Positions 11,496-33,742 of a DNA stretch of 33,742 bases are shown here, one piece after another. The translations under genes were made by a program, and so were the position numbers. Positions within the stretch are counted from its first letter, which is position 1. Each line of letters starts with the position of its first letter. The notes under the pieces are model-generated. The model did not search any database, was not told where the DNA came from, and was given only the letters and a program-made list of their open reading frames with translations. Source of the stretch: an uncultured Bacilli bacterium (GTDB lineage Bacteria > Bacillota_I > Bacilli_A > RF39 > UBA660); NCBI GenBank assembly GCA_947624635.1, contig CANQLF010000001.1, positions 1 to 33,742 on the forward strand, written 5' to 3'.

Positions 11496-14400
11496 CTATT
11501 CAATAAACTCTGTTCCCATAATGTGTTTTCTAATCTTGATGTAATCTTTTGAAGTAATAACTTCATCTAGGTTAATATCTGCTGCATAGAATAATGTTTT
11601 ATCAGTTATTACTTCAGATCCCATTATATGCTTTCTAATTTTAATATAGTCTTTTGAAGTTATTTCACCATCCCCATTTATATCTCCTGCTAAAGCAATT
11701 TTATAATCAAAATCTTTTGTATTATTTATTTTAATTCTTACTATATCTTTTGTCTTAACATCATCTGAAGTAGTTAATTCATTACTTGATTCGTAATGAG
11801 AATATGCTATTTCATTAGCAAAATAATTAAATCTTTCAATTATTTTAGAAAAACTTTTATTTTTTGTTATTACTACATTATCTCTAATTGATAGTGGAGG
11901 ATTAACACCTCTTATACCATATATTTTTACTTTATTACTTCCCATTAAAGTTTCATAACCTTCAGCAGTTACCTTGTATTTAACTGTGTATTCACCAACA
12001 AACATGAACGAAGGTACCTTACTTCCATAGTCTGTATCATCAACGGAATACTCTATTTCATAATCATCTATATCCAATTTAATATCAAGTGAATGTAATT
12101 GACCATCATATATACCCTCATAATCTTTTGTATAATTAAATATTATATTGGTATTATATACATTAACTGATAATTCAATATTTTCAATCACTTCATAATT
12201 TTCAGTATCTTCTGGTGTATATTTTGCTAGAAATGTTTGTTCACCTACTTCTGTTATTGTTTGATTTTTATCCATCCACTCAAATCCTGTTGGTAAATCT
12301 ATATCACTTAATTTCATGTTTACTTTTGCTTTTAGATTATTTGGCTTTTCATAATTAGGTGTTGCTTTTGATACATTTACATTTACATTTTTTTCATAAG
12401 TTTCATTATATATATCATTAATTATTACTGTGTAATATGAATGATTAAATCTAAAACTATCTAAATTATTTATATATTTAATTGTATATCCATCTGTTAT
12501 AGTTTTACTATTAGTTTCTTCTTTATATTCGTTATCTTTATTATATCCTTTTTCAAAATTTAAAGATATTGAACTTATGTCACTGCTAGTAACTTTTTCA
12601 AATGCTTTATATGATGTTTTATTTGCATTAATAGTTATTTCTGGATTTAAGGTTTCATATTTTATTTTATTATTTTTTGCATATTCTTTTGCATAAGCAT
12701 CACTGTATGTATAAATTGTTAAATCTATTTTTTCTTGTTGTGTATTTTTATCAAAAGAATTTGTAGCTATTGAATCGACTGATCTTGGAATATAAACTTC
12801 TTTTAATTTTTTACAAGCATAAAAAGCATGATCTTTAATTTCTTTAACTTTTTTTGGAATAATAATACTATTTATACCACTATTTACAAATGCCATTGCA
12901 TTTATTTGTTCAATTGATTCTGGTAAATTAACCGTTTCAAGATTTTCACAATTAAAGAAGGTATTGGATTCAATTGTTTTAACACCATCTGGAATATCAA
13001 TACTCTTAATATTAGTTCCAGAAAAAGCATTACTGCCTATATATGTAATACTTTCAGGTATATTTATATGTTCAAGTTTAGAACATCCAGAGAAAGCACC
13101 ATTTTCTATTCTAGTAATTTTTTCTGCTAATTTAATGTTATCCAAGAATTCACAACCTGAAAAAGCTTGAGAACCAATTTTAGAAATCACACCATTAAAT
13201 GTCGTAAGTTTGTAATTATACATAAAAGCATTTTCATTAATTTCTATTTCTGGACTGTTTATTATTACTTTTTCTAATGTAGATTTTGAATCTTGTGATA
13301 ATATTTTTTCAGCACGAAAAACATTTTTTCCAATTTTAGATATTGTTTTTGGTAAATTTATAATTTTAAAGTATTCAAAATCTTTTGAATTTTTAAACAT
13401 ATCTGAACTACTACTTGATGTTGAATCTGCTAATGATACTACATTATATTCGTTAATTGTTTCAGGAAAATATAAACTAAGATATTTTTGATTATTATCT
13501 TTGTAATGTGTTAATTCTATATTAGATGAATCAAGAATATTATATTCCCAGCCTACATCTTCAAATCTCGGATTTGTTATATTAAAGGCTTCCGTTAAAC
13601 CATCATATTTAATTGTTACAGTTTGTTGGGTATTACTATTTGGATTATATCCTTCTATTTCTATATTCTCTAATTTACCCAAAGTCCTTGTTATTTTTCT
13701 ACCGTCATTATAGTGAATTAAAATTTCTGTTGGAAATAAATTATTTACACTATAATAATTATAGTCTGTTGTTTTAATGTTAGTTACTTCTATTTTAGTT
13801 ATTTCAGTTGCACTTTTAGAAAATATACCATATTCATCACATTCATCTTCTTGACTATTATCACAAAATTTAGCATTATTAAATGAGATTAATCCATATC
13901 CATAGTATTCATCCCATCCTTCATCACCTAAATCTTGAGCATATATTTTTAATAATTCGATTGCATCATCAATTGTAAGGTCTTTATTAAGTGATTTTAA
14001 AATTGCTACTGAACTTACTGCATGTGGTGTAGCCATAGAAGTTCCACTCATTTTTCCATTAATACTTTCTATATCTGTTCCAGGGGCAGTAAAAGTTATA
14101 TATCTTCCATAATTTGAAAAATCAGATTTATTTAAAGACGAATCTACTGAAGAAATAGCAATTGTAGTATCAAGAGCTGCAGGATATGATTTATCAGATG
14201 TGCTTTCATTACCTGCTGCAGCAACACTTATTATATTTTGTTCTTTTGCTGCTTCTATTGCACTATCAAGTGCTAAATCGTTTCTTTCTGAGCCAAAGCT
14301 CATGTTAATAACATCTGCTTTTTTGTCTTGAACTATATAATTTACTGCTGCTACTATTTTAACTGTATCAATAGATTTATCATCTGATACTTTAACTGGT

Positions 14401-15056
14401 AAAATTTTAACGTTATTTGGTGTACTTTCAGCAATTGTTCCAGCTATATGTGTACCATGTCCATAATTATCAAACATATCACTATCTGAAGTTAGTATAT
14501 TATAAGTTTTTTCTATTTTTCCTGAATAATTTTCATTAAATAAATCCATATCACAACCTGTATCTATTATTGCTACTGTAATATCATTTAATTTTTGTGA
14601 ATTAGCAAATTCAATTGCATCATCTAGTCCCATTTTTTCTACTCCCCAAGAATTATAATTTCCATCTACATTTGAAAAAGTATAAGTTATATTTTCTTGT
14701 ACAATAATAGAAGGATCATTTTTTAATTTATTAAATGCTTTATCTTTATTTTTCAAATTGTCATATTGTAGGATATATTGATTATTAGGAGCATCAATTA
14801 TTTTTTTAGCTCCGTATGTTTCTTTTAATTTTTCTTCAGATATTACAATTAATATATTGTCTTTTTCATCTTCTTTTATTTCTGATACTTCTTTAAAATA
14901 ATTATTCATAAATTCTTTTGGTAATTTTGAAATATTTATTAGGTCATCAGTTAGTTTATTATTATTTAATAATTTATGTTTAAAATAAAAGCAACAAGTT
15001 ATTGAACCAATTAAAAAGATTACTAAAAAGGCACTGATATACAATCTTTTTTTCAT
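11496..15056 (-). CDS. Large secreted subtilisin-family (S8) serine protease with BspA-type leucine-rich repeats, Ig-like modules and a C-terminal dockerin
   Basis: 1186 aa. S8 catalytic triad contexts: AIIDTGCD (Asp), HGTHIAGTIA (His), GTSMATPHAV (Ser). LRR_5-like repeats, e.g. FSGCSKLEHINIPESITYIGSNAFSG. Duplicated Ca-binding dockerin segments GDINGDGEITSKDYIKIRKHIMG and ADINLDEVITSKDYIKIRKHIMG at the C-terminus (about nt 11499-11714). Confidence 0.85.
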   Translation of the reverse strand: MKKRLYISAFLVIFLIGSITCCFYFKHKLLNNNKLTDDLINISKLPKEFMNNYFKEVSEIKEDEKDNILIVISEEKLKETYGAKKIIDAPNNQYILQYDNLKNKDKAFNKLKNDPSIIVQENITYTFSNVDGNYNSWGVEKMGLDDAIEFANSQKLNDITVAIIDTGCDMDLFNENYSGKIEKTYNILTSDSDMFDNYGHGTHIAGTIAESTPNNVKILPVKVSDDKSIDTVKIVAAVNYIVQDKKADVINMSFGSERNDLALDSAIEAAKEQNIISVAAAGNESTSDKSYPAALDTTIAISSVDSSLNKSDFSNYGRYITFTAPGTDIESINGKMSGTSMATPHAVSSVAILKSLNKDLTIDDAIELLKIYAQDLGDEGWDEYYGYGLISFNNAKFCDNSQEDECDEYGIFSKSATEITKIEVTNIKTTDYNYYSVNNLFPTEILIHYNDGRKITRTLGKLENIEIEGYNPNSNTQQTVTIKYDGLTEAFNITNPRFEDVGWEYNILDSSNIELTHYKDNNQKYLSLYFPETINEYNVVSLADSTSSSSSDMFKNSKDFEYFKIINLPKTISKIGKNVFRAEKILSQDSKSTLEKVIINSPEIEINENAFMYNYKLTTFNGVISKIGSQAFSGCEFLDNIKLAEKITRIENGAFSGCSKLEHINIPESITYIGSNAFSGTNIKSIDIPDGVKTIESNTFFNCENLETVNLPESIEQINAMAFVNSGINSIIIPKKVKEIKDHAFYACKKLKEVYIPRSVDSIATNSFDKNTQQEKIDLTIYTYSDAYAKEYAKNNKIKYETLNPEITINANKTSYKAFEKVTSSDISSISLNFEKGYNKDNEYKEETNSKTITDGYTIKYINNLDSFRFNHSYYTVIINDIYNETYEKNVNVNVSKATPNYEKPNNLKAKVNMKLSDIDLPTGFEWMDKNQTITEVGEQTFLAKYTPEDTENYEVIENIELSVNVYNTNIIFNYTKDYEGIYDGQLHSLDIKLDIDDYEIEYSVDDTDYGSKVPSFMFVGEYTVKYKVTAEGYETLMGSNKVKIYGIRGVNPPLSIRDNVVITKNKSFSKIIERFNYFANEIAYSHYESSNELTTSDDVKTKDIVRIKINNTKDFDYKIALAGDINGDGEITSKDYIKIRKHIMGSEVITDKTLFYAADINLDEVITSKDYIKIRKHIMGTEFIE

Positions 15057-15084
15057 ACTGCTAAACCTCTCTTACTCTGGGATA

Positions 15085-15114
15085 ATTATATCATTTATTG
15101 ACACCCTTTTTCAA
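15085..15114 (-). promoter_or_regulatory. Promoter of the protease operon (extended -10)
   Basis: On the - strand: TTGAAA (15109-15114), 18-nt spacer, and TGATATAAT (15085-15093, a TGn extended -10). Confidence 0.45.
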
Positions 15115-15135
15115 CTGATATAACGACAATTTTTT

Positions 15136-15165
15136 AAAGAAAAAAACTAACAATTTTGCTAGTTT
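15136..15165 (-). terminator. Rho-independent terminator after the noc-like gene
   Basis: - strand RNA AAACUAGC-AAAAUU-GUUAGUUU (15144-15165, 8-bp stem with one G-U pair), followed by UUUUCUUU. Starts immediately after the stop codon at 15166-15168. Confidence 0.65.
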
Positions 15166-16572
15166 CTATTTTTGTATATTTATTACTATTTGATGAGTAG
15201 TACCCATGTCTTGTTCATCAACATTAATTATATATCCATTGTTTTGTAAATTAACTACTGTATTTCTTATAACTGCAACTGCACCTGTTATATCTTGTTG
15301 AGCTATAAATGATGTAGGTTGAGCCTCAGTCATTGGAGGCATACCAGTAAGGCCTGCTTGATTAGGTGAACCAAATGCAGGTGGTTCTTGCATGAAATTG
15401 TTATTTGGTTCTATTTGATGTTCATTTATATTTGGATTACCAAATTGATTTGGATCAAATGTAGCATTATTAGGGTTAAATGTATTACCCATATTCATAT
15501 TTGCTGCTTCATCATCTAAGTTGTTAAAGAACCTTCCTCCTATTGATTCATTATTTTGTTGTGCCATACCATTTTGCATTCCCATTTGATTTGGATCTTG
15601 CATTATTGCTGGATTATTTGGAACATCTTGATTCATTGGAGTTCCACCAAATACTGGAGGCTCACTTGGTTGTGATGGTTGTGGTATTGGTTGATTATTT
15701 ATATCCAAAGGATTTGGAACATCACTAATAGGCATTTGATTTAAATTATTTTGGTTATTTATATTTGAATTTTCTTGATTAATGTTATTATCAATTGGTG
15801 GTGCATCAACATTATTTTGATTCATATCTTGTTCACCTTCAATACTTATAGGAGTTGGTTCTACTTCAATATTTGGTGTATCAACATTATCTGTACTTGC
15901 TTCAGGTGAAGCTGGAGTATCTATTTGAAAATCTATTATTTCACTATCTTCTTCTGTATCTTGTGGTGTATCATTTCCTAACATGTTTTTAATTTCATTA
16001 TCAGTTTCTCTAACAGTAAGTCTATTTTCAATTATTTTATTTAACATTTCATTTTGAGCAGTTTTATCTTTTAATTTTAATAAACTTCTTGCATGTCTTT
16101 CTGATATTTTAGTATCGAGTAATGCTTGTTGAGCTTCATCACTTAAATTTAATAATCTTAATTTGTTAGATACTGTTGATTGAGTCTTACCTACTCTTTT
16201 AGCTAATTCTTCTTGATTCATTTGTCCTAATTCTAATATTTTTTCATAAGATTTTGCTTCTTCTATTGCAGTTAAATCTTTTCTTTGTATGTTTTCAACT
16301 AAAGCTATTTCTGCACTATCTGCATCATTTATTTCCATAACAATTGATGGAACAGTTTTAAGACCTATTATATTTGCAGCTTTAAATCTTCTTTCACCTG
16401 CAATTATTTCATACTTATCTCCTAGTTTTCTTAAAACTAATGGTTGAATTAGGCCATGTTGTCTAATTGAATCAGCTAATTCGTTTAATGATTCTTCATC
16501 AAAGTTTTTTCTAGGTTGAAATCTGTTAGGAATAATATCATTAACACTTATTTGTTCAACTTGATTGTTCAT
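15166..16572 (-). CDS. noc: ParB/Noc-family CTP-switch DNA-binding protein with Noc-type HTH and a long Q/N/P-rich low-complexity insertion
   Basis: 468 aa. ParB box IIPNRFQPR and GERRFKAA arginine patch. HTH region GKTQSTVSNKLRLLNL...ISERHARSL resembles B. subtilis Noc rather than Spo0J. Sits directly downstream of rsmG, as noc does in Bacillus. AAGGAGGGG RBS before the ATG at 16572. An in-frame TGA lies 14 codons upstream with no start codon between, so the N-terminus cannot be longer. Confidence 0.75.
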   Translation of the reverse strand: MNNQVEQISVNDIIPNRFQPRKNFDEESLNELADSIRQHGLIQPLVLRKLGDKYEIIAGERRFKAANIIGLKTVPSIVMEINDADSAEIALVENIQRKDLTAIEEAKSYEKILELGQMNQEELAKRVGKTQSTVSNKLRLLNLSDEAQQALLDTKISERHARSLLKLKDKTAQNEMLNKIIENRLTVRETDNEIKNMLGNDTPQDTEEDSEIIDFQIDTPASPEASTDNVDTPNIEVEPTPISIEGEQDMNQNNVDAPPIDNNINQENSNINNQNNLNQMPISDVPNPLDINNQPIPQPSQPSEPPVFGGTPMNQDVPNNPAIMQDPNQMGMQNGMAQQNNESIGGRFFNNLDDEAANMNMGNTFNPNNATFDPNQFGNPNINEHQIEPNNNFMQEPPAFGSPNQAGLTGMPPMTEAQPTSFIAQQDITGAVAVIRNTVVNLQNNGYIINVDEQDMGTTHQIVINIQK

Positions 16573-17319: not shown

Positions 17320-19175
17320 TAGTAACCACCTTTTTTTAAATACACAGATAATATGGATATATCTGATGGATTAACTCCACTTATACGTGATGCTTGTCCA
17401 ATTGATTTTGGTCTTACTTCTATTAATTTTTGTCTTGCTTCTGATGCAAGATTTGGTATTTTTTTATAATCTATATCTTCAGGTATTTTTTTATTTTCTA
17501 ATTTCAACATTTTTTCTGCTTCTCTTATAGCTTTTTTTATGTATCCATCATATTTAATATTTATTTCTACTTGTTCTTTTATTTCATCTGTATAATCTAT
17601 ATTTTTAAAATGAGTTAATTTATCTATTGTTATTTCTGGTCTTTTTAATAGTTCATAAAGTGTTATACCATCTTTTATTTCAGCACTATCTAATTCTTTT
17701 AAATATTCATTTACTTCTTTAGTTGGTGTAACTTTTATACTTTGTAGTTCTTCTTCTAATTTCTTAATTGATTCTATTTTTTCATCTAGTTTTTTCTTTC
17801 TTTCTTCACTAATTAATCCTACTTCATAACCATAATTACTTAATCTTAAATCTGCATTATCATGTCTTAATAATAATCTAAATTCTGCTCTTGAAGTTAA
17901 TAATCTATACGGTTCTTTTGTACCTTTTGTAACTAAATCGTCTATTAACACACCAATATAAGCTTCATTTCTTTTAAGTATTAATGGTTCTTTACCTTCT
18001 AGTTTTAGCGAAGCATTTATTCCTGCAATTAAACCTTGAGCTGCTGCTTCTTCATAACCACTTGTTCCGTTTATTTGTCCTGCAGTAAATAAATTTTCTA
18101 CTAATTTTGTTTCAAGTGAAGCATTTATTTGTAATGGATTAATCGCATCATATTCTATTGCATAAGCATATTTTAATATTTTAACGTTTTCTAATCCTTC
18201 AATACTATGTACCATATTCTCTTGTACATCATAAGGCATACTAGTAGAAAATCCTTGTAAGTATATATCATCATAATATAAGCTTTCTGGCTCTAAAAAT
18301 AATTGATGTCTATTTTTATCACTAAATCTTACTACTTTATCTTCTATTGATGGGCAGTATCTTGGACCAATTCCTTTTGCATATCCACCATACATACTTG
18401 ATCTATTTAAATTATCCATTATTATTTTGTGAGTTTTTTCATTTGTATAAACTAAATAACATGGTTCTTGTTTATCTATATCGTAAGTTGGATTTGTTTC
18501 ATAACTAAAACTCCATCTTACTTTATCTCCATCTTCTCTTCTAGTTTTAGAGTAATCTATAGTTGCTCTATCAAGTCTTGGTGGTGTTCCTGTTTTAAGT
18601 CTTTGAATATCGAATCCTAATTCTTTTAAATCATCACTTAAAAACATAGATGGTCTTTGATTATTAGGACCTTTTCTTGTTCTAGTATCCCCTACTAAAA
18701 TATCAGCTTTTAAATATGTTCCTGTTGTAAGTATTACTGTATCTGCATATATTTTTTCTCCACCTGCAAGAACTATACCTTTTATTTTTTTATCTTCAAC
18801 TATTAAGTGTTCAACCATATCTTCTAATAAGGTTAAGTTTTCAGTAGATTTTAAAGTTTCTTGCATATTTTTTGGATAAGTTATTTTATCTGCTTGGGCA
18901 CGTAAGCTTCTTACAGCTGGTCCTTTAGATGAATTAAGCATTTTGATTTGTATATGACTTTTATCTGCATTTTTACCCATTTCTCCACCTAAGGCATCTA
19001 TTTCTCTTACAACTATACCTTTCGCACTTCCACCTATTGATGGATTACATGGCATATCTGCAATATTATTTATATTTCCTGTTATAAGTAGAGTTTTATG
19101 ACCAATTCGTGCACATGCTAATGATGCTTCACAACCAGCATGTCCACCACCTACTACAATTACTTCGTATTTCAT
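17319..19175 (-). CDS. mnmG: tRNA uridine 5-carboxymethylaminomethyl modification enzyme MnmG (GidA)
   Basis: Start moved to the ATG at 19175 ([20 protein letters not shown]-binding GxGxxG), preceded by AGGAAGTGG. Full-length GidA-like sequence. Confidence 0.93.
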
Positions 19176-23493: not shown

Positions 23494-23509
23494 TATTTCC
23501 CGGGAAATA
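23494..23509. promoter_or_regulatory. Noc-binding-site (NBS)-type palindrome 1
   Basis: TATTTCCCGGGAAATA, a perfect 16-bp palindrome (extends to 24 bp, 23490-23513). The core equals the B. subtilis NBS consensus ATTTCCCGGGAAAT. Confidence 0.7.
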
Positions 23510-23539
23510 TTTTATTTCCCGGGAAATATTTTATTTCCC
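23495..23539. repeat. 19-bp tandem direct repeat, 2.4 copies (ATTTCCCGGGAAATATTTT)
   Basis: Identical units at 23495-23513 and 23514-23532, plus a partial unit at 23533-23539. Confidence 0.9.
23513..23528. promoter_or_regulatory. Noc-binding-site (NBS)-type palindrome 2
   Basis: Second perfect TATTTCCCGGGAAATA, with its centre 19 bp from the first. A third half-site TATTTCCC follows at 23532-23539. Confidence 0.7.
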
Positions 23540-23823
23540 AAATCCACAGGTATCTGTGGAAAACTATACTATATTTTTATAGTTTTTATAGAGTTTTCCA
23601 CAGTTTCAACAGCTATGTTGATAAATTTTACCACAAGTGTGTTTAATTTATCAACAAGAATGTGTATAATTTAATATTTATATTATAAAATATTAAATTT
23701 TGCTGTGGAAAAGTCTGTGAATATTAAATTTTCTTTAATTTTTTTCATATTTTTGTTTTCTTTTCAACAGTTTTAGTTTAAAATATTAATTAGATTGGAA
23801 TACTTTATTGGAGGTGATTGGTT

Positions 23824-25191: not shown

Positions 25192-25290
25192 TGTGGATAA
25201 GAAGAGAATTTTCGACAACTTTTGCACAACTAAAAATATAAAAATAGTTCATTTTTAGGTTATTTTTTTAAGTTATCCACAGTTTCCACA
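25192..25290. promoter_or_regulatory. oriC part II: DnaA boxes in the dnaA-dnaN spacer
   Basis: Perfect TTATCCACA at 25192-25200 (- strand, as TGTGGATAA) and at 25273-25281 (+). The latter is directly followed by GTTTCCACA at 25282-25290. Confidence 0.8.
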
Positions 25291-26610: not shown

Positions 26611-27051
26611 ATGAATTGCTACGAAATAAATGAGGAAACATTAGCTATATTACCTTATGGAGATACACAAAGTAAAATAATTGAAAAATATAAGGAATTT
26701 ATAGTTAATAAAACTCCTTATGAAATTATAACTTACAGTTGTTTATATTTTGGCAGTTCCTATGAAGGAAGAATTTCAGCAACTAAGTACCTTCTTGGAA
26801 TATCATATAAATCACCAATTGTAATAGAAGAATCTCGCAATTTAATTTTCTTTCCAACAAACTCGCCAAAATTACAAGACTGTAGCTGGATTTCTTTGAA
26901 AAGTATAGTAGACTATAAGAGAAATAATAGTAAATCAATGATATTATTTGATAATAACGTTAGATTACCACTTGATATTTCTTATGGTTCTCTAGAAAAT
27001 CAAATTATGAGAGCTTCTAGGTTAGACTCTATGTTAAGAAACAACAGATAA
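26611..27051 (+). CDS. comK: ComK-family protein (competence transcription factor-like), short form
   Basis: 146 aa. Aligns by eye with B. subtilis and S. aureus ComK landmarks: AILPYGD..SKIIEK, SCLYFGSSYEGR, GISYKSPIVIE, IFFPTNSP, CSWISL, ISYGSLENQ. GGGGGTGA RBS. Confidence 0.65.
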   Translation: MNCYEINEETLAILPYGDTQSKIIEKYKEFIVNKTPYEIITYSCLYFGSSYEGRISATKYLLGISYKSPIVIEESRNLIFFPTNSPKLQDCSWISLKSIVDYKRNNSKSMILFDNNVRLPLDISYGSLENQIMRASRLDSMLRNNR

Positions 27052-30249: not shown

Positions 30250-32691
30250 ATGGACAGATTAGAACAAAATAATATAGTTAAAGAAGTAAGAGATTCATTC
30301 TTAGATTATTCAATGAGTGTCATAGTAGCACGTGCACTTCCTGATTTAAGAGATGGATTAAAACCTGTTCACCGTCGTATATTATATTCGATGTATGAAT
30401 CTGGTTATACTCCTGATAAACCTCATAAGAAAAGTGCGAGAATAGTAGGGGATGTAATGGGAAAATACCATCCACATGGTGACTCTAGTATCTATGAAGC
30501 AATGGTACGTATGGCACAAGACTTTAGTTATAGATATGAACTTGTGGATGGACACGGAAACTTTGGTAATATCGAAGGTTATGGCGCAGCTGCGATGCGT
30601 TACACTGAATCTAGATTATCAAAAATTTCCCTTGAACTTCTTAGAAACATAAATAAAGATACAGTAGATTTTATTGATAACTTCGATGAATCAGAAAAAG
30701 AACCAACAGTTTTACCTTCAAGATTTCCGAATATTTTAGTAAATGGTACTATGGGTATTGCAGTTGGTATGGCAACTAATATTCCACCACATAACTTAGG
30801 TGAAGTAATAGATGGTTGTGTTGCTTATATTGATAATCCAGATATCGATGTTCCAGGATTAATGCAATATATTAAAGGACCTGACTTTCCTACAGGAGCT
30901 GTTATTTTAGGTAATAGTGGAATTAGAAAAGCTTATGAAACTGGTAGAGGAACAATTACTATCAGAAGTAGAGCTCATATAGAAGAAAATCATGGTAAAC
31001 AATACATAATAGTTGATGAAGTACCTTATGGTGTTAATACTTTAGAACTTAAAAACAAAGTTGCAGAATTAGTACATAATAAAACTATTGATGGAATTAC
31101 TGATTATCATGCGGATTTAAAAGATGGTATTAAAATAACTATTTCATTAAAAAGAGATGCAAATGCTCAAGTTGTTTTAAATAAATTATATAAACATACT
31201 GCTTTTCAAGTTAATTATGGTATTATTTTCTTAATGCTAGATCAAGGTGTTCCAAAAACTTTAGGATTAAAAGATATAATTGTTAAATATATAGATTACC
31301 AAAAAGAAATTATAATTAGAAGAACTAGATTTGATTTAGATAAAGCTGAAAAAAGAGTACATATCCTAGAAGGACTAAAGATAGCTTTAGATAATATTGA
31401 TGAAGTAATTAAATTAATTAGAGGTTCTAAAGCGGATGAAGAAGCAAAAAGTGGACTTATGGAAAGATTTGGACTTTCTGAAGCTCAAGCTAACGCAATT
31501 CTTGAAATGCGTCTTAGAAGATTAACTGGTTTGGAACGCGAAAAAATAGAAGACGAATTAAAAGAATTAACTGAATTAATAGCTGAACTTAAATCTATTT
31601 TAGCTTCTGAAGAAAAAGTTTTAAGTATAATTAAAGAAGAGTTATTAGAAATCAAAGAAAAATATGGTGATGAAAGAAGAACAGATATAGATATGACAGC
31701 TATTGAATATATCGAAGATGAATCACTTATTCCAGAAGAAAATATTATTGTTGCTTTAACCAAGAATGGTTACATTAAGCGTACAACTACTGATACTTTC
31801 AAAGCACAAAGACGTGGTGGTGTAGGTATTAAAGGTATGAGTACAAATGAAGAAGATTTTGTTGACAATATGATTAATTTATCTTCTCACGATTATCTAT
31901 TATTCTTTACTAATAAAGGTAAAGTTTATAGAATGAAAGGATACGAAGTTCCTGAATTTAGTAGGCAATCAAAAGGATTACCAATTATTAATTTATTATC
32001 AATAGAAAAAGACGAAAACATTAGTTCGATGCTAATGATTAAAAAAGATGAACAAGATGCAAAATATTTGCTATTTGTAACTAAAGATGGTGTAGTTAAG
32101 AGAACTAAGTTAGAAGAATTCGATAATATTAGAAATAATGGTAAGATAGCAATTACTCTAAAAGAAAATGATGAATTAATTAGTGTTAAGAAAACTACTG
32201 GAGATAACTTTATATTAATTGGATCTGATCAAGGAAGAATGGTAAGATTTAATGAAAATGAAGTTAGAGTAATGGGTAGAACTGCATCTGGTGTTAGAGG
32301 TATAAATATGCCAGAAGGTGCTAAATGTGTTGGTGCAGAAATATCTAATAGTGAAGATGAAATATTAATTGTTACTGAAAAAGGTTACGGAAAGCGTACA
32401 AAGGTTGAAGACTTTAGAGAAACAAGACGTGGTAGCAAGGGTGTTAAAGCACTTAATGTTACTGAAAAGAATGGAACTATAGTTGCATTTAAGATTGCAA
32501 ATGATGATGAAGATGTTATGGTAGTAACAAATAGCGGAATTATTATTAGATTACCTATTAATCAAGTTTCTGTTTTAGGTAGAGTTACTCAAGGTGTTAG
32601 ATTAATTAATTTAAAAGATAATCAAGTAGTAGCAACAGTTTCTACTGTTGTTAAAGAACAAGAATCTGATGAAGAAGAAGTCGAAGAATAG
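30250..32691 (+). CDS. gyrA: DNA gyrase subunit A
   Basis: 813 aa. QRDR region [17 protein letters not shown], catalytic Tyr context [11 protein letters not shown]-terminal beta-pinwheel repeats, acidic tail. TAGGAGG RBS. Confidence 0.95.
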
Positions 32692-32702
32692 ACTTCTTTT
32701 TT
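32677..32702 (+). terminator. gyrA terminator
   Basis: GAAGTC (32677-32682) / GACTTC (32691-32696) stem with an 8-nt loop, followed by T6 (32697-32702). Overlaps the gyrA stop codon. Confidence 0.55.
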
Positions 32703-32704
32703 AA

Positions 32705-32720
32705 TGTTTCACGTGAAACA
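32705..32720. promoter_or_regulatory. parS site 1 (ParB/Spo0J centromere-like site)
   Basis: TGTTTCACGTGAAACA, a 16/16 fit to the Firmicute parS consensus TGTTNCACGTGAAACA. Perfect palindrome, 18 bp with flanking A/T. Confidence 0.85.
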
Positions 32721-32810
32721 TAGGTAGAAATTCTAATAAAAAAATAAAATTTAACAAAAAAATATAATTAAATATTGAAATAAATACTATTGATTATAAA
32801 AATAAAACAA

Positions 32811-32826
32811 TGTTTCACGTGAAACA
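32811..32826. promoter_or_regulatory. parS site 2
   Basis: Identical TGTTTCACGTGAAACA, 106 bp from site 1. Confidence 0.85.
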
Positions 32827-32917
32827 TAGGATTGAAATACTAATAAAATAATTGAGTTTAATCAAAACTATAATTAAATGTTAAAATAAATAATATTAAT
32901 TATAAAAAAAAAGACAA

Positions 32918-32933
32918 TGTTTCACGTGAAACA
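32918..32933. promoter_or_regulatory. parS site 3
   Basis: Identical TGTTTCACGTGAAACA, 107 bp from site 2. Confidence 0.85.
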
Positions 32934-33024
32934 TTAGATAGAAATGCAAATAAAATAATAAAACTTAATTAAAAATATAATTAAATGTTAAAATAAATAA
33001 TATTAATTATGAAAACAAAAATAA

Positions 33025-33040
33025 TGTTTCACGTGAAACA
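33025..33040. promoter_or_regulatory. parS site 4
   Basis: Identical TGTTTCACGTGAAACA, 107 bp from site 3 and 14 bp upstream of the ffs -35 element. Confidence 0.85.
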
Positions 33041-33053
33041 TTAATTATATTTC

Positions 33054-33083: not shown

Positions 33084-33087
33084 ATTA

Positions 33088-33167
33088 GTGCACAACAAAT
33101 ATGTTGGAACCAGGTCAGAATTGGAAGATAGCAGCCTTAACAACCTCTGTTTGTGTGTGCTTTTTTT
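33088..33167 (+). ncRNA. ffs: Signal recognition particle RNA, short (4.5S-like) form
   Basis: Domain IV signature CCAGGTCAGAATTGGAAGATAGCAGCC, including a GGAA tetraloop closed by AUU/GAU and the conserved AGCAGCC strand. The 5' GTGCACAACAAA pairs with the 3' TTTGTGTGTGC and is followed by T7. Ends uncertain by a few nt. Confidence 0.75.
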
Positions 33168-33179
33168 ATGGTGATGTTT

Positions 33180-33608
33180 ATGAATAATAAATTTTTGAAT
33201 GAAATAATTAAATTAGCAGAAAAAGCTGAGAAAAATAATTGCGTTCCAGTAGGTGCAATTGTAGTTAAAGATAATAAGATAATTAGTAAAGGCTATAATA
33301 AGAAAGAAAAAACTAACAATCCTATGGATCATGCAGAAATAATTGCAATTAAAAAAGCTTCTAAGAAAATTAAAAATTGGAGGATGCCAGATTGTGAAAT
33401 TTATGTAACGATGAAACCATGTGCTATGTGTCAAAAAGTGATTGCTGAAAGTAGAATAATGAAAGTACACTACTTAATTGATAATAAAAAACAATCAAGC
33501 ACAACAAATAATATTTTAAATAAAATAAATATGCAAAAAGAAAACGAACGTATATATGAAATAAATTATACTAAAATAATAACAAATTTTTTTAAAAAAA
33601 GACGATAA
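33180..33608 (+). CDS. tadA: tRNA-specific adenosine deaminase (CDA-fold zinc deaminase)
   Basis: Zinc-binding motifs DHAEIIAIKKA (HAE) and PCAMCQKVI (PCxxC). Start chosen at the ATG at 33180 (MNNKFLNEI), 4 nt after GGTGAT. The ORF-track start at 33153 lies inside the SRP RNA. ATGs at 33168 and 33174 are also possible. Confidence 0.8.
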   Translation: MNNKFLNEIIKLAEKAEKNNCVPVGAIVVKDNKIISKGYNKKEKTNNPMDHAEIIAIKKASKKIKNWRMPDCEIYVTMKPCAMCQKVIAESRIMKVHYLIDNKKQSSTTNNILNKINMQKENERIYEINYTKIITNFFKKRR

Positions 33609-33692
33609 AATTATATTTATTAAAAGTTAACATGATATAATAACAAGAGATTCAAACTGATATAAAATTTTCACAAACCTGTTGATAAGAGC

Positions 33693-33721
33693 TTGACTTC
33701 GGGGGGGGGTTAATTTATAAT
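33693..33721 (+). promoter_or_regulatory. Near-consensus sigma-A promoter with a G9 tract in the spacer, driving a gene beyond the window edge
   Basis: TTGACT (33693-33698), TC, GGGGGGGGG (33701-33709), TTAATT, TATAAT (33716-33721). Spacer is exactly 17 nt. Confidence 0.6.
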
Positions 33722-33742
33722 AAAATTAAGGCTAGTGGATAA

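Follow-up and report, generated by a model that had tools for sequence, protein, structure and literature searches.

Dense groups of parS sites have been described on several bacterial chromosomes. M. xanthus carries 22 parS sites in ~3 kb (PMC3899335), and C. glutamicum has ten redundant sites in 35 kb, mostly intergenic, where a single parS supports ~32 kb of spreading as well as SMC-dependent arm alignment (PMC7083940). P. aeruginosa has four parS sites near oriC, one of which suffices (PMC4368675). The known clusters are mostly intergenic and nucleate ParB and, where tested, SMC loading. Repeated sites also occur on plasmids: F-plasmid sopC consists of a 43-bp direct repeat present 12 times, and SopB binds the 16-bp inverted repeat found in every copy (PMC3177203). 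The NBS sites of Noc differ from parS at two positions per half site (PMC7383237).

The array described here lies in a window of 33,742 nt, which is the whole stretch of DNA that was analyzed. As in M. xanthus, C. glutamicum, P. aeruginosa, and B. subtilis, it consists of redundant, origin-proximal copies of the same 16-bp consensus palindrome. It differs from the known chromosomal clusters in that its sites are carried on an obvious recent tandem repeat with a 107-bp unit and in that it occupies the gyrA-ffs interval instead of adjoining parAB, which is not origin-linked in this subclade. With sopC, the array shares direct repeats with one palindromic ParB-family site each; in contrast to sopC, it is chromosomal, its parS sequence is of the chromosomal type, and its unit is longer and more diverged. 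It is neither plasmid borne nor adjacent to a partition operon. The array therefore belongs to an already known kind, with similar arrays present in related gut Bacilli and in many other bacteria; specific to it are the site behind gyrA, the clear origin by tandem duplication, the recurrence in a clade of Bacilli, and the absence of a linked parAB. The array is real and probably functional, and we consider it likely, from sequence comparison, to be a genuine origin-proximal chromosomal centromere with redundant loading sites for a canonical ParB whose gene lies elsewhere than in the window.

Sequence and surroundings of the parS array

The window represents a chromosomal origin region with the rpmH-dnaA-dnaN-recF-gyrBA context. 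On one side of the origin, the minus strand carries rsmG, mnmG, mnmE, jag, yidC, rnpA, and rpmH; on the other side, dnaA, dnaN, a ComK-family gene, recF, gyrB, and gyrA run along the plus strand ahead of the array, the gene for the small SRP RNA, and tadA. Since dnaA is at 23818 and clusters of DnaA boxes were found at 23555 to 23712 and 25192 to 25281, the array is ~9 kb from oriC and is thus origin proximal, close to the 8 to 9 kb given in the original prediction. The left flank is gyrA (30250 to 32691, plus strand), identified by a Pfam DNA_topoisoIV match (5.5e-166) and six GyrA C-terminal repeats. A terminator-like hairpin with a T-run at its 3' end (32670 to 32703, plus strand; RNA fold of -15.2 kcal/mol, z = -5.1) forms the left bound of the array, although this hairpin was not called by a simple terminator scan. 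The right flank is ffs (33084 to 33169, plus strand; Rfam RF00169, 54.3 bits), after which comes tadA (33153 to 33608), assigned by its Pfam deaminase domains. An exact-protein look-up of the window GyrA returned no match on record, and a look-up with L34 (rpmH) returned three short contigs ~94% identical to the window which end before oriC and the array.

When the window was scanned with the 16-bp palindromic consensus TGTTNCACGTGAAACA, four exact 16/16 matches with the sequence TGTTTCACGTGAAACA were found at 32705 to 32720, 32811 to 32826, 32918 to 32933, and 33025 to 33040, against a chance expectation of 0.01; a value of 5 was not reached in any of 100 shuffles. Each of the four matches extends to AATGTTTCACGTGAAACAT, so both the number of perfect sites and their positions agree with the original prediction. 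The first copy begins 2 nt past the U-tract of the gyrA terminator, and ffs begins 44 bp downstream of the last. The next-best match in the window, TGTTTCAAGTGAAGCA at 18108 to 18123 within mnmG, has two mismatches and is probably due to chance.

Tandem Repeats Finder (TRF) reported a 107-bp repeat from 32703 to 33041 (3.2 copies, 86% matches, score of 490), and a repeat search gave start-to-start spacings of 106 and 107 bp. There is one parS per unit. The region has a G+C content of 18%, reflecting its AT-rich spacers, compared to 26% for the window. Alignment of units 1 to 3 showed variation in 30 of the 89 noncore columns and none in the 19-bp core, an outcome with a probability by chance of ~4e-4 (binomial) or ~1e-3 (hypergeometric); pairwise, the spacers differ by 16 to 28%. 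Judging from the TRF period and the unit alignment, the four copies arose through tandem duplication of the 107-bp unit, and the cores have been conserved against drifting spacers, both as originally proposed.

The copy number of four is taken from a metagenome assembly. The longest exact repeat within the array is only 35 bp, and the units are therefore distinguishable, which makes four copies credible as assembled. A true copy number different from that of the assembly appears highly improbable: the window is a metagenome contig, and arrays in two relatives described below contain runs of N, but the many columns at which the units differ and a longest repeat shorter than normal assembly k-mers and reads mean that each unit would be placed uniquely.

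It was also considered whether the palindromes might be RNA hairpins or sites of an unrelated CACGTG-binding regulator of ffs rather than parS. Each site can fold into a 7-bp hairpin (-6 kcal/mol, z = -2.9), and the final copy is just upstream of ffs. This fold is weak and has no T-run, however, and the 16-mer is identical to the site that adjoins parB genes across phyla, leaving such a reading with a negligible likelihood; a hairpin or terminator role was rejected on account of the weak fold and the absent T-run. Promoter-like motifs were no more common in the repeat units than in shuffles.

parS clusters in relatives and in other bacteria

The original prediction had suggested comparing the gyrA-ffs spacer in related genomes. 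Five syntenic loci (L146 to L150) were reached via DnaA homologues 85 to 92% identical to the window DnaA, and all five carry parS in this spacer, either perfect or as the accepted variants TGTTCCACGTGAAACA and TGTTTCACGTGGAACA. The comparison thus revealed arrays at the same place on different units: L146 has four sites at irregular spacing, L147 has a ~36-bp unit in three copies plus two further sites, L148 has a pair of sites at a distance of 54 bp, and L149 and L150 have ~54-bp units broken by runs of N. These runs, which are scaffold gaps at L149:19090-19190 and L150:18925-19020, fall inside parS arrays with nearly identical units. In short-read assemblies, the copy numbers of such arrays are not reliable.

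Among the matches listed from a wider scan, 16 loci from low-GC metagenome-assembled genomes (MAGs) labeled "uncultured Bacilli," Tenericutes, or "Mycoplasma sp." have 3 to 11 parS sites adjoining tadA, and 14 of the 16 contain a gyrA that is 61 to 78% identical to that of the window. One of these arrays, L114, comprises seven perfect parS sites at ~107 bp, the period of the window array; homology between the two 107-bp units was rejected (z = 0.87). Another, L070, has 11 sites, of which ten are spaced at 55 bp. These clade arrays and the five syntenic ones resemble the window array in locus, motif, and tandem-amplified character and differ from it in that unit, period, and copy number are specific to each genome, the repeat units being nonhomologous. 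Independent amplification has therefore happened repeatedly, an argument that the sites are under selection. In the five relatives and the 16 MAG loci alike, parS is kept at the orthologous spacer while the flanks differ.

These observations bear on whether the window array might be a neutral or relic repeat, in which one ancestral parS was recently duplicated by slippage and the extra copies are functionless or unbound. A single parS is enough in P. aeruginosa (PMC4368675) and C. glutamicum (PMC7083940), copy number and period vary freely among relatives, and no site was found in the gyrA-ffs spacer of three of them (L001, L014, and L151). On the other hand, the spacers of the window array have diverged around cores that stayed identical, and consensus parS has been retained through independent amplifications in many relatives. 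We therefore regard a relic as very unlikely.

More distant relatives have NBS as well as parS in the same spacer. In L152 (19150 to 19700) and L153 (18930 to 19095), parS and NBS are interleaved within tens of base pairs, a further difference from the window array. Both loci carry a Noc-type gene, and the L153 sequence ends inside it. L002 (4960 to 5320 and 6970 to 7045), whose GyrA C-terminal region is 63% identical, has four ParB/Noc-type palindromes in the spacer, all with A1, in place of parS: TATTTCACGTGAAATA, TATTTCCCGGGAAATA, TATTTCGCGTGAAATA, and TATTTCCTGGGAAATA. One of them is a perfect NBS and one an NBS carrying a mismatch; the others are hybrids whose core, CACGTG or GCGTG, is parS-like. 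From these sequences, the L002 spacer could be a centromere that switched from the parS type to the NBS type. The presence of both kinds of site in the gyrA-ffs spacers of distant relatives suggests that the spacer is an ancestral landing pad for both paralogues, and their interleaving in L152 and L153 raises the question of how two sliding-clamp paralogues divide one loading zone.

The original prediction had viewed the array as unusual for a chromosome and more like a plasmid centromere. This was not borne out by a scan for pairs of perfect parS sites 92 to 122 bp apart in a single representative of each species, which yielded at least 120 loci spanning Bacillota, Actinomycetota, Proteobacteria, Spirochaetes, Patescibacteria, and others, nor by the dense clusters in the literature (PMC3899335, PMC7083940). 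Among the matches listed, four or more parS sites are chained within 300 bp in 32 of 120 loci, and in most other phyla the clusters adjoin mnmG, rsmG, or parB. A TRF-detectable tandem array with parS was present in 15 of the 127 loci checked (the 120 listed and seven relatives), with units elsewhere of ~36, 46, 54, 55, 57, and 175 bp.

It had further been proposed that the ~107-bp spacing, which corresponds to about ten turns of the helix, places all four sites on the same face. Across 127 gaps of 92 to 122 bp in the 120 genomes listed, no 10.5-bp phase preference was detected (Rayleigh p = 0.29), and the relatives have other units or irregular spacing. Helical phasing of the parS sites was therefore rejected.

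A Noc-type protein and NBS sites at oriC

The original prediction was correct in stating that no canonical ParA or ParB is encoded in the window but overlooked a ParB-family gene at 15166 to 16572 (minus strand), directly downstream of rsmG. This gene, the only one of its family in the window, encodes a 468-amino-acid (aa) protein with Pfam ParB_N and HTH_ParB domains. The best NCBIfam model for the product was nucleoid_noc (TIGR04285), at 291.7 bits below its cutoff of 315, with the match spanning profile positions 1 to 212 of 255. Structure matches likewise ranked Noc (7NG0/7NFU, 206 bits) above B. subtilis Spo0J (6SDK, 179 bits). In an alignment with 7NG0, the residues at specificity positions 173, 179, 184, and 201 are Q, K, N, and R. 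Jalal et al. found that Q173 reads adenine 1 and R201 cytosine 6 of NBS if position 179 or 184 has a permissive lysine, and that parS-specific variants in their mutational scan, like natural ParBs, always have R173, with natural ParBs having G201 (PMC7383237). The window protein, with Q173, R201, and a permissive lysine, is of the NBS type, and by these rules it is predicted to bind NBS and not parS; as a binder of the parS array it was judged unlikely. By its position after rsmG, its HMM score, and its specificity residues, the product is assigned as a Noc orthologue.

As in B. subtilis, then, a Noc-like protein is encoded downstream of rsmG and perfect NBS sites are present. In contrast to B. 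subtilis Noc, the window protein lacks the N-terminal membrane-targeting amphipathic helix. Its longest possible open reading frame begins 3 residues before the start of the 7NFU alignment, which is residue 27 of the Noc chain, and its homologues share this start point. It also differs in having a long disordered linker, a Q/N/P-rich insertion of ~230 aa ahead of the Noc-like C-terminal domain. More than 100 homologues of 290 to 750 aa have a similar layout, and among the 120 best homologues all 83 scorable sequences have Q173 and R201. Within the subclade, variation is seen at positions 179 and 184 (QKNR, QTDR, QTER, and QMDR), some sequences being without a permissive lysine. ParB-family HTH matches across all fetched loci comprised 38 of the R...G type, one R..S, one R..A, and 11 Q..R; hence 38 of the 40 non-Q..R matches carry R173 and G201, and 9 of the 11 Q..R matches are Noc-type genes of the window's own subclade.

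Two perfect NBS sites, exact matches to TATTTCCCGGGAAATA at 23495 and 23514, occupy 23494 to 23528 in the rpmH-dnaA spacer, 19 bp apart (TRF, 19-bp period at 100%), with a half site trailing to 23541. The chance expectation for perfect NBS matches was 0.04, and these are the only true NBS sites in the window; the array sites carry G1 and A6 instead of the A1 and C6 of NBS and are thus parS. The distance from the pair to the first of the oriC DnaA boxes is ~30 bp, and each of the five relatives L146 to L150 has one perfect NBS at this same location, ~300 bp upstream of dnaA. This location in oriC itself differs from B. subtilis, where NBS sites are scattered along the chromosome. The Noc-type protein is predicted to load at this pair, and the location of the pair inside oriC suggests that the protein acts at the origin.

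The cognate ParB and the proposed role of the array

In two more distant relatives, L154 (DnaA 71% identical) and L152 (66%; one source attributes its DnaA to Candidatus Faecimonas intestinavium), the gene order is rsmG, noc-like, soj, spo0J, and mscS. The regions compared were L152:376-3609, L154:494-3431, and 11496 to 16572 of the window. Their canonical ParB is 295 aa long and has the motif GKSRS...GHAR, that is, R173 and G201, and both loci also carry parS in the gyrA-ffs spacer. In the window and L146 to L150, the slot after the noc-like gene is filled by a penicillin-binding protein or an S8 protease, without soj-spo0J. Neither ParA nor a second ParB was found within 10 kb of dnaA in these six genomes, nor was a parS-type ParB with R173 and G201 found in the window or for L146 to L150, its five closest relatives. 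When the L154 ParB was used as the query, none of its 120 best homologues, which are 66 to 83% identical and belong to closer relatives, was on the known contigs of the subclade.

One explanation would be that the subclade has lost soj-spo0J and that the Noc-type paralogue, with its QKNR residues and no membrane helix, loads at both the parS array and the NBS pair in oriC as the sole, dual-specificity centromere protein. It is the only ParB-family gene seen within 10 to 23 kb of oriC in the six genomes, the slot that holds soj-spo0J in L152 and L154 is without that pair here, positions 179 and 184 are unusually variable in the subclade, and the NBS and hybrid sites of L002, such as TATTTCACGTGAAATA, demonstrate that Noc-type sites can sit in the spacer. 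Against this, Q173 and R201 read A1 and C6, the very positions at which NBS differs from parS, and the parS-specific variants all have R173 (PMC7383237). Genomes in which perfect NBS holds one fixed place and perfect parS another bear the signature of two binders, and under a single Noc-type binder the array sites would be expected to drift to A1, as in L002, whereas they have stayed G1 and A6. Such a takeover by Noc is therefore unlikely. We give an equally low likelihood to a Noc-derived, ParA-less origin-organizing system that would use the long disordered linker and two loading zones bracketing the dnaA-gyrA block.

That the ParB is encoded elsewhere in the genome is most likely, since the subclade retains perfect parS (G1 and A6) and continues to amplify it, since perfect NBS (A1 and C6) occupies a separate fixed place in the same genomes, and since L002 illustrates how a spacer with A1-type sites looks. 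We therefore infer that the cognate ParB gene is located outside the window. As a precedent we take the Bacillus-class genome of Staphylococcus aureus, in which noc presumably lies beside rsmG while spo0J is elsewhere and soj is absent.

According to the centromere model that we favor, each of the four palindromes would be a nucleation site for a canonical CTP-dependent ParB (Spo0J type, R173/G201), which closes there to form a sliding clamp. Spreading of these clamps would cover the adjoining 10 to 20 kb and so reach oriC 9 kb away, and the resulting ParB-DNA complex would organize the origin region, segregate it, and, if B. subtilis and C. glutamicum are a guide, load SMC. ParB binding, spreading, and SMC loading at the array are thus expected from homologous systems. 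The duplication took place in the gyrA-ffs spacer, where this clade of low-GC, uncultured gut Bacilli traditionally houses its parS and NBS sites. The additional copies would provide redundancy and loading capacity with neither number nor period being fixed, and the Noc-type paralogue should load instead at the oriC pair of NBS sites.

Should the proposed function hold, the array would mark where the centromere of this uncultured lineage of gut Bacilli lies, and it would show that the parS copy number at the gyrA-ffs spacer repeatedly grows and shrinks via tandem duplication; the variation among relatives is natural material for asking what is gained from additional parS sites. The surroundings offer the more useful lead, namely, parS and NBS clusters at fixed, separate positions around the dnaA-gyrA block. 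A Noc paralogue without its membrane anchor, together with the departure of soj-spo0J from its ancestral slot, provides a natural system for studying how ParB and Noc divide or exchange roles. The interest of the locus lies less in the array than in the clade-wide arrangement of parS and NBS and in the atypical Noc paralogue.

Several other features of the window were recorded. A subtilase gene at 11496 to 15056 (minus strand) encodes a 1,186-aa protein with BspA-type leucine-rich repeats and a C-terminal type I dockerin, and two camelysin-like genes are located at 177 to 1812. Together, these genes hint at a cellulosome-associated or herbivore-gut lifestyle; the dockerin subtilase is not at the syntenic position in relatives. 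At the contig end past tadA (33690 to 33742), there is a near-consensus promoter with TTGACT and TATAAT separated by 17 nt that include a run of nine Gs, at a place where relatives have dnaX. Finally, the ComK-family gene (26611 to 27051, plus strand; Pfam, 6e-45) is kept between dnaN and recF in all relatives examined (L146 to L154), an unusual location for a competence regulator such as ComK.
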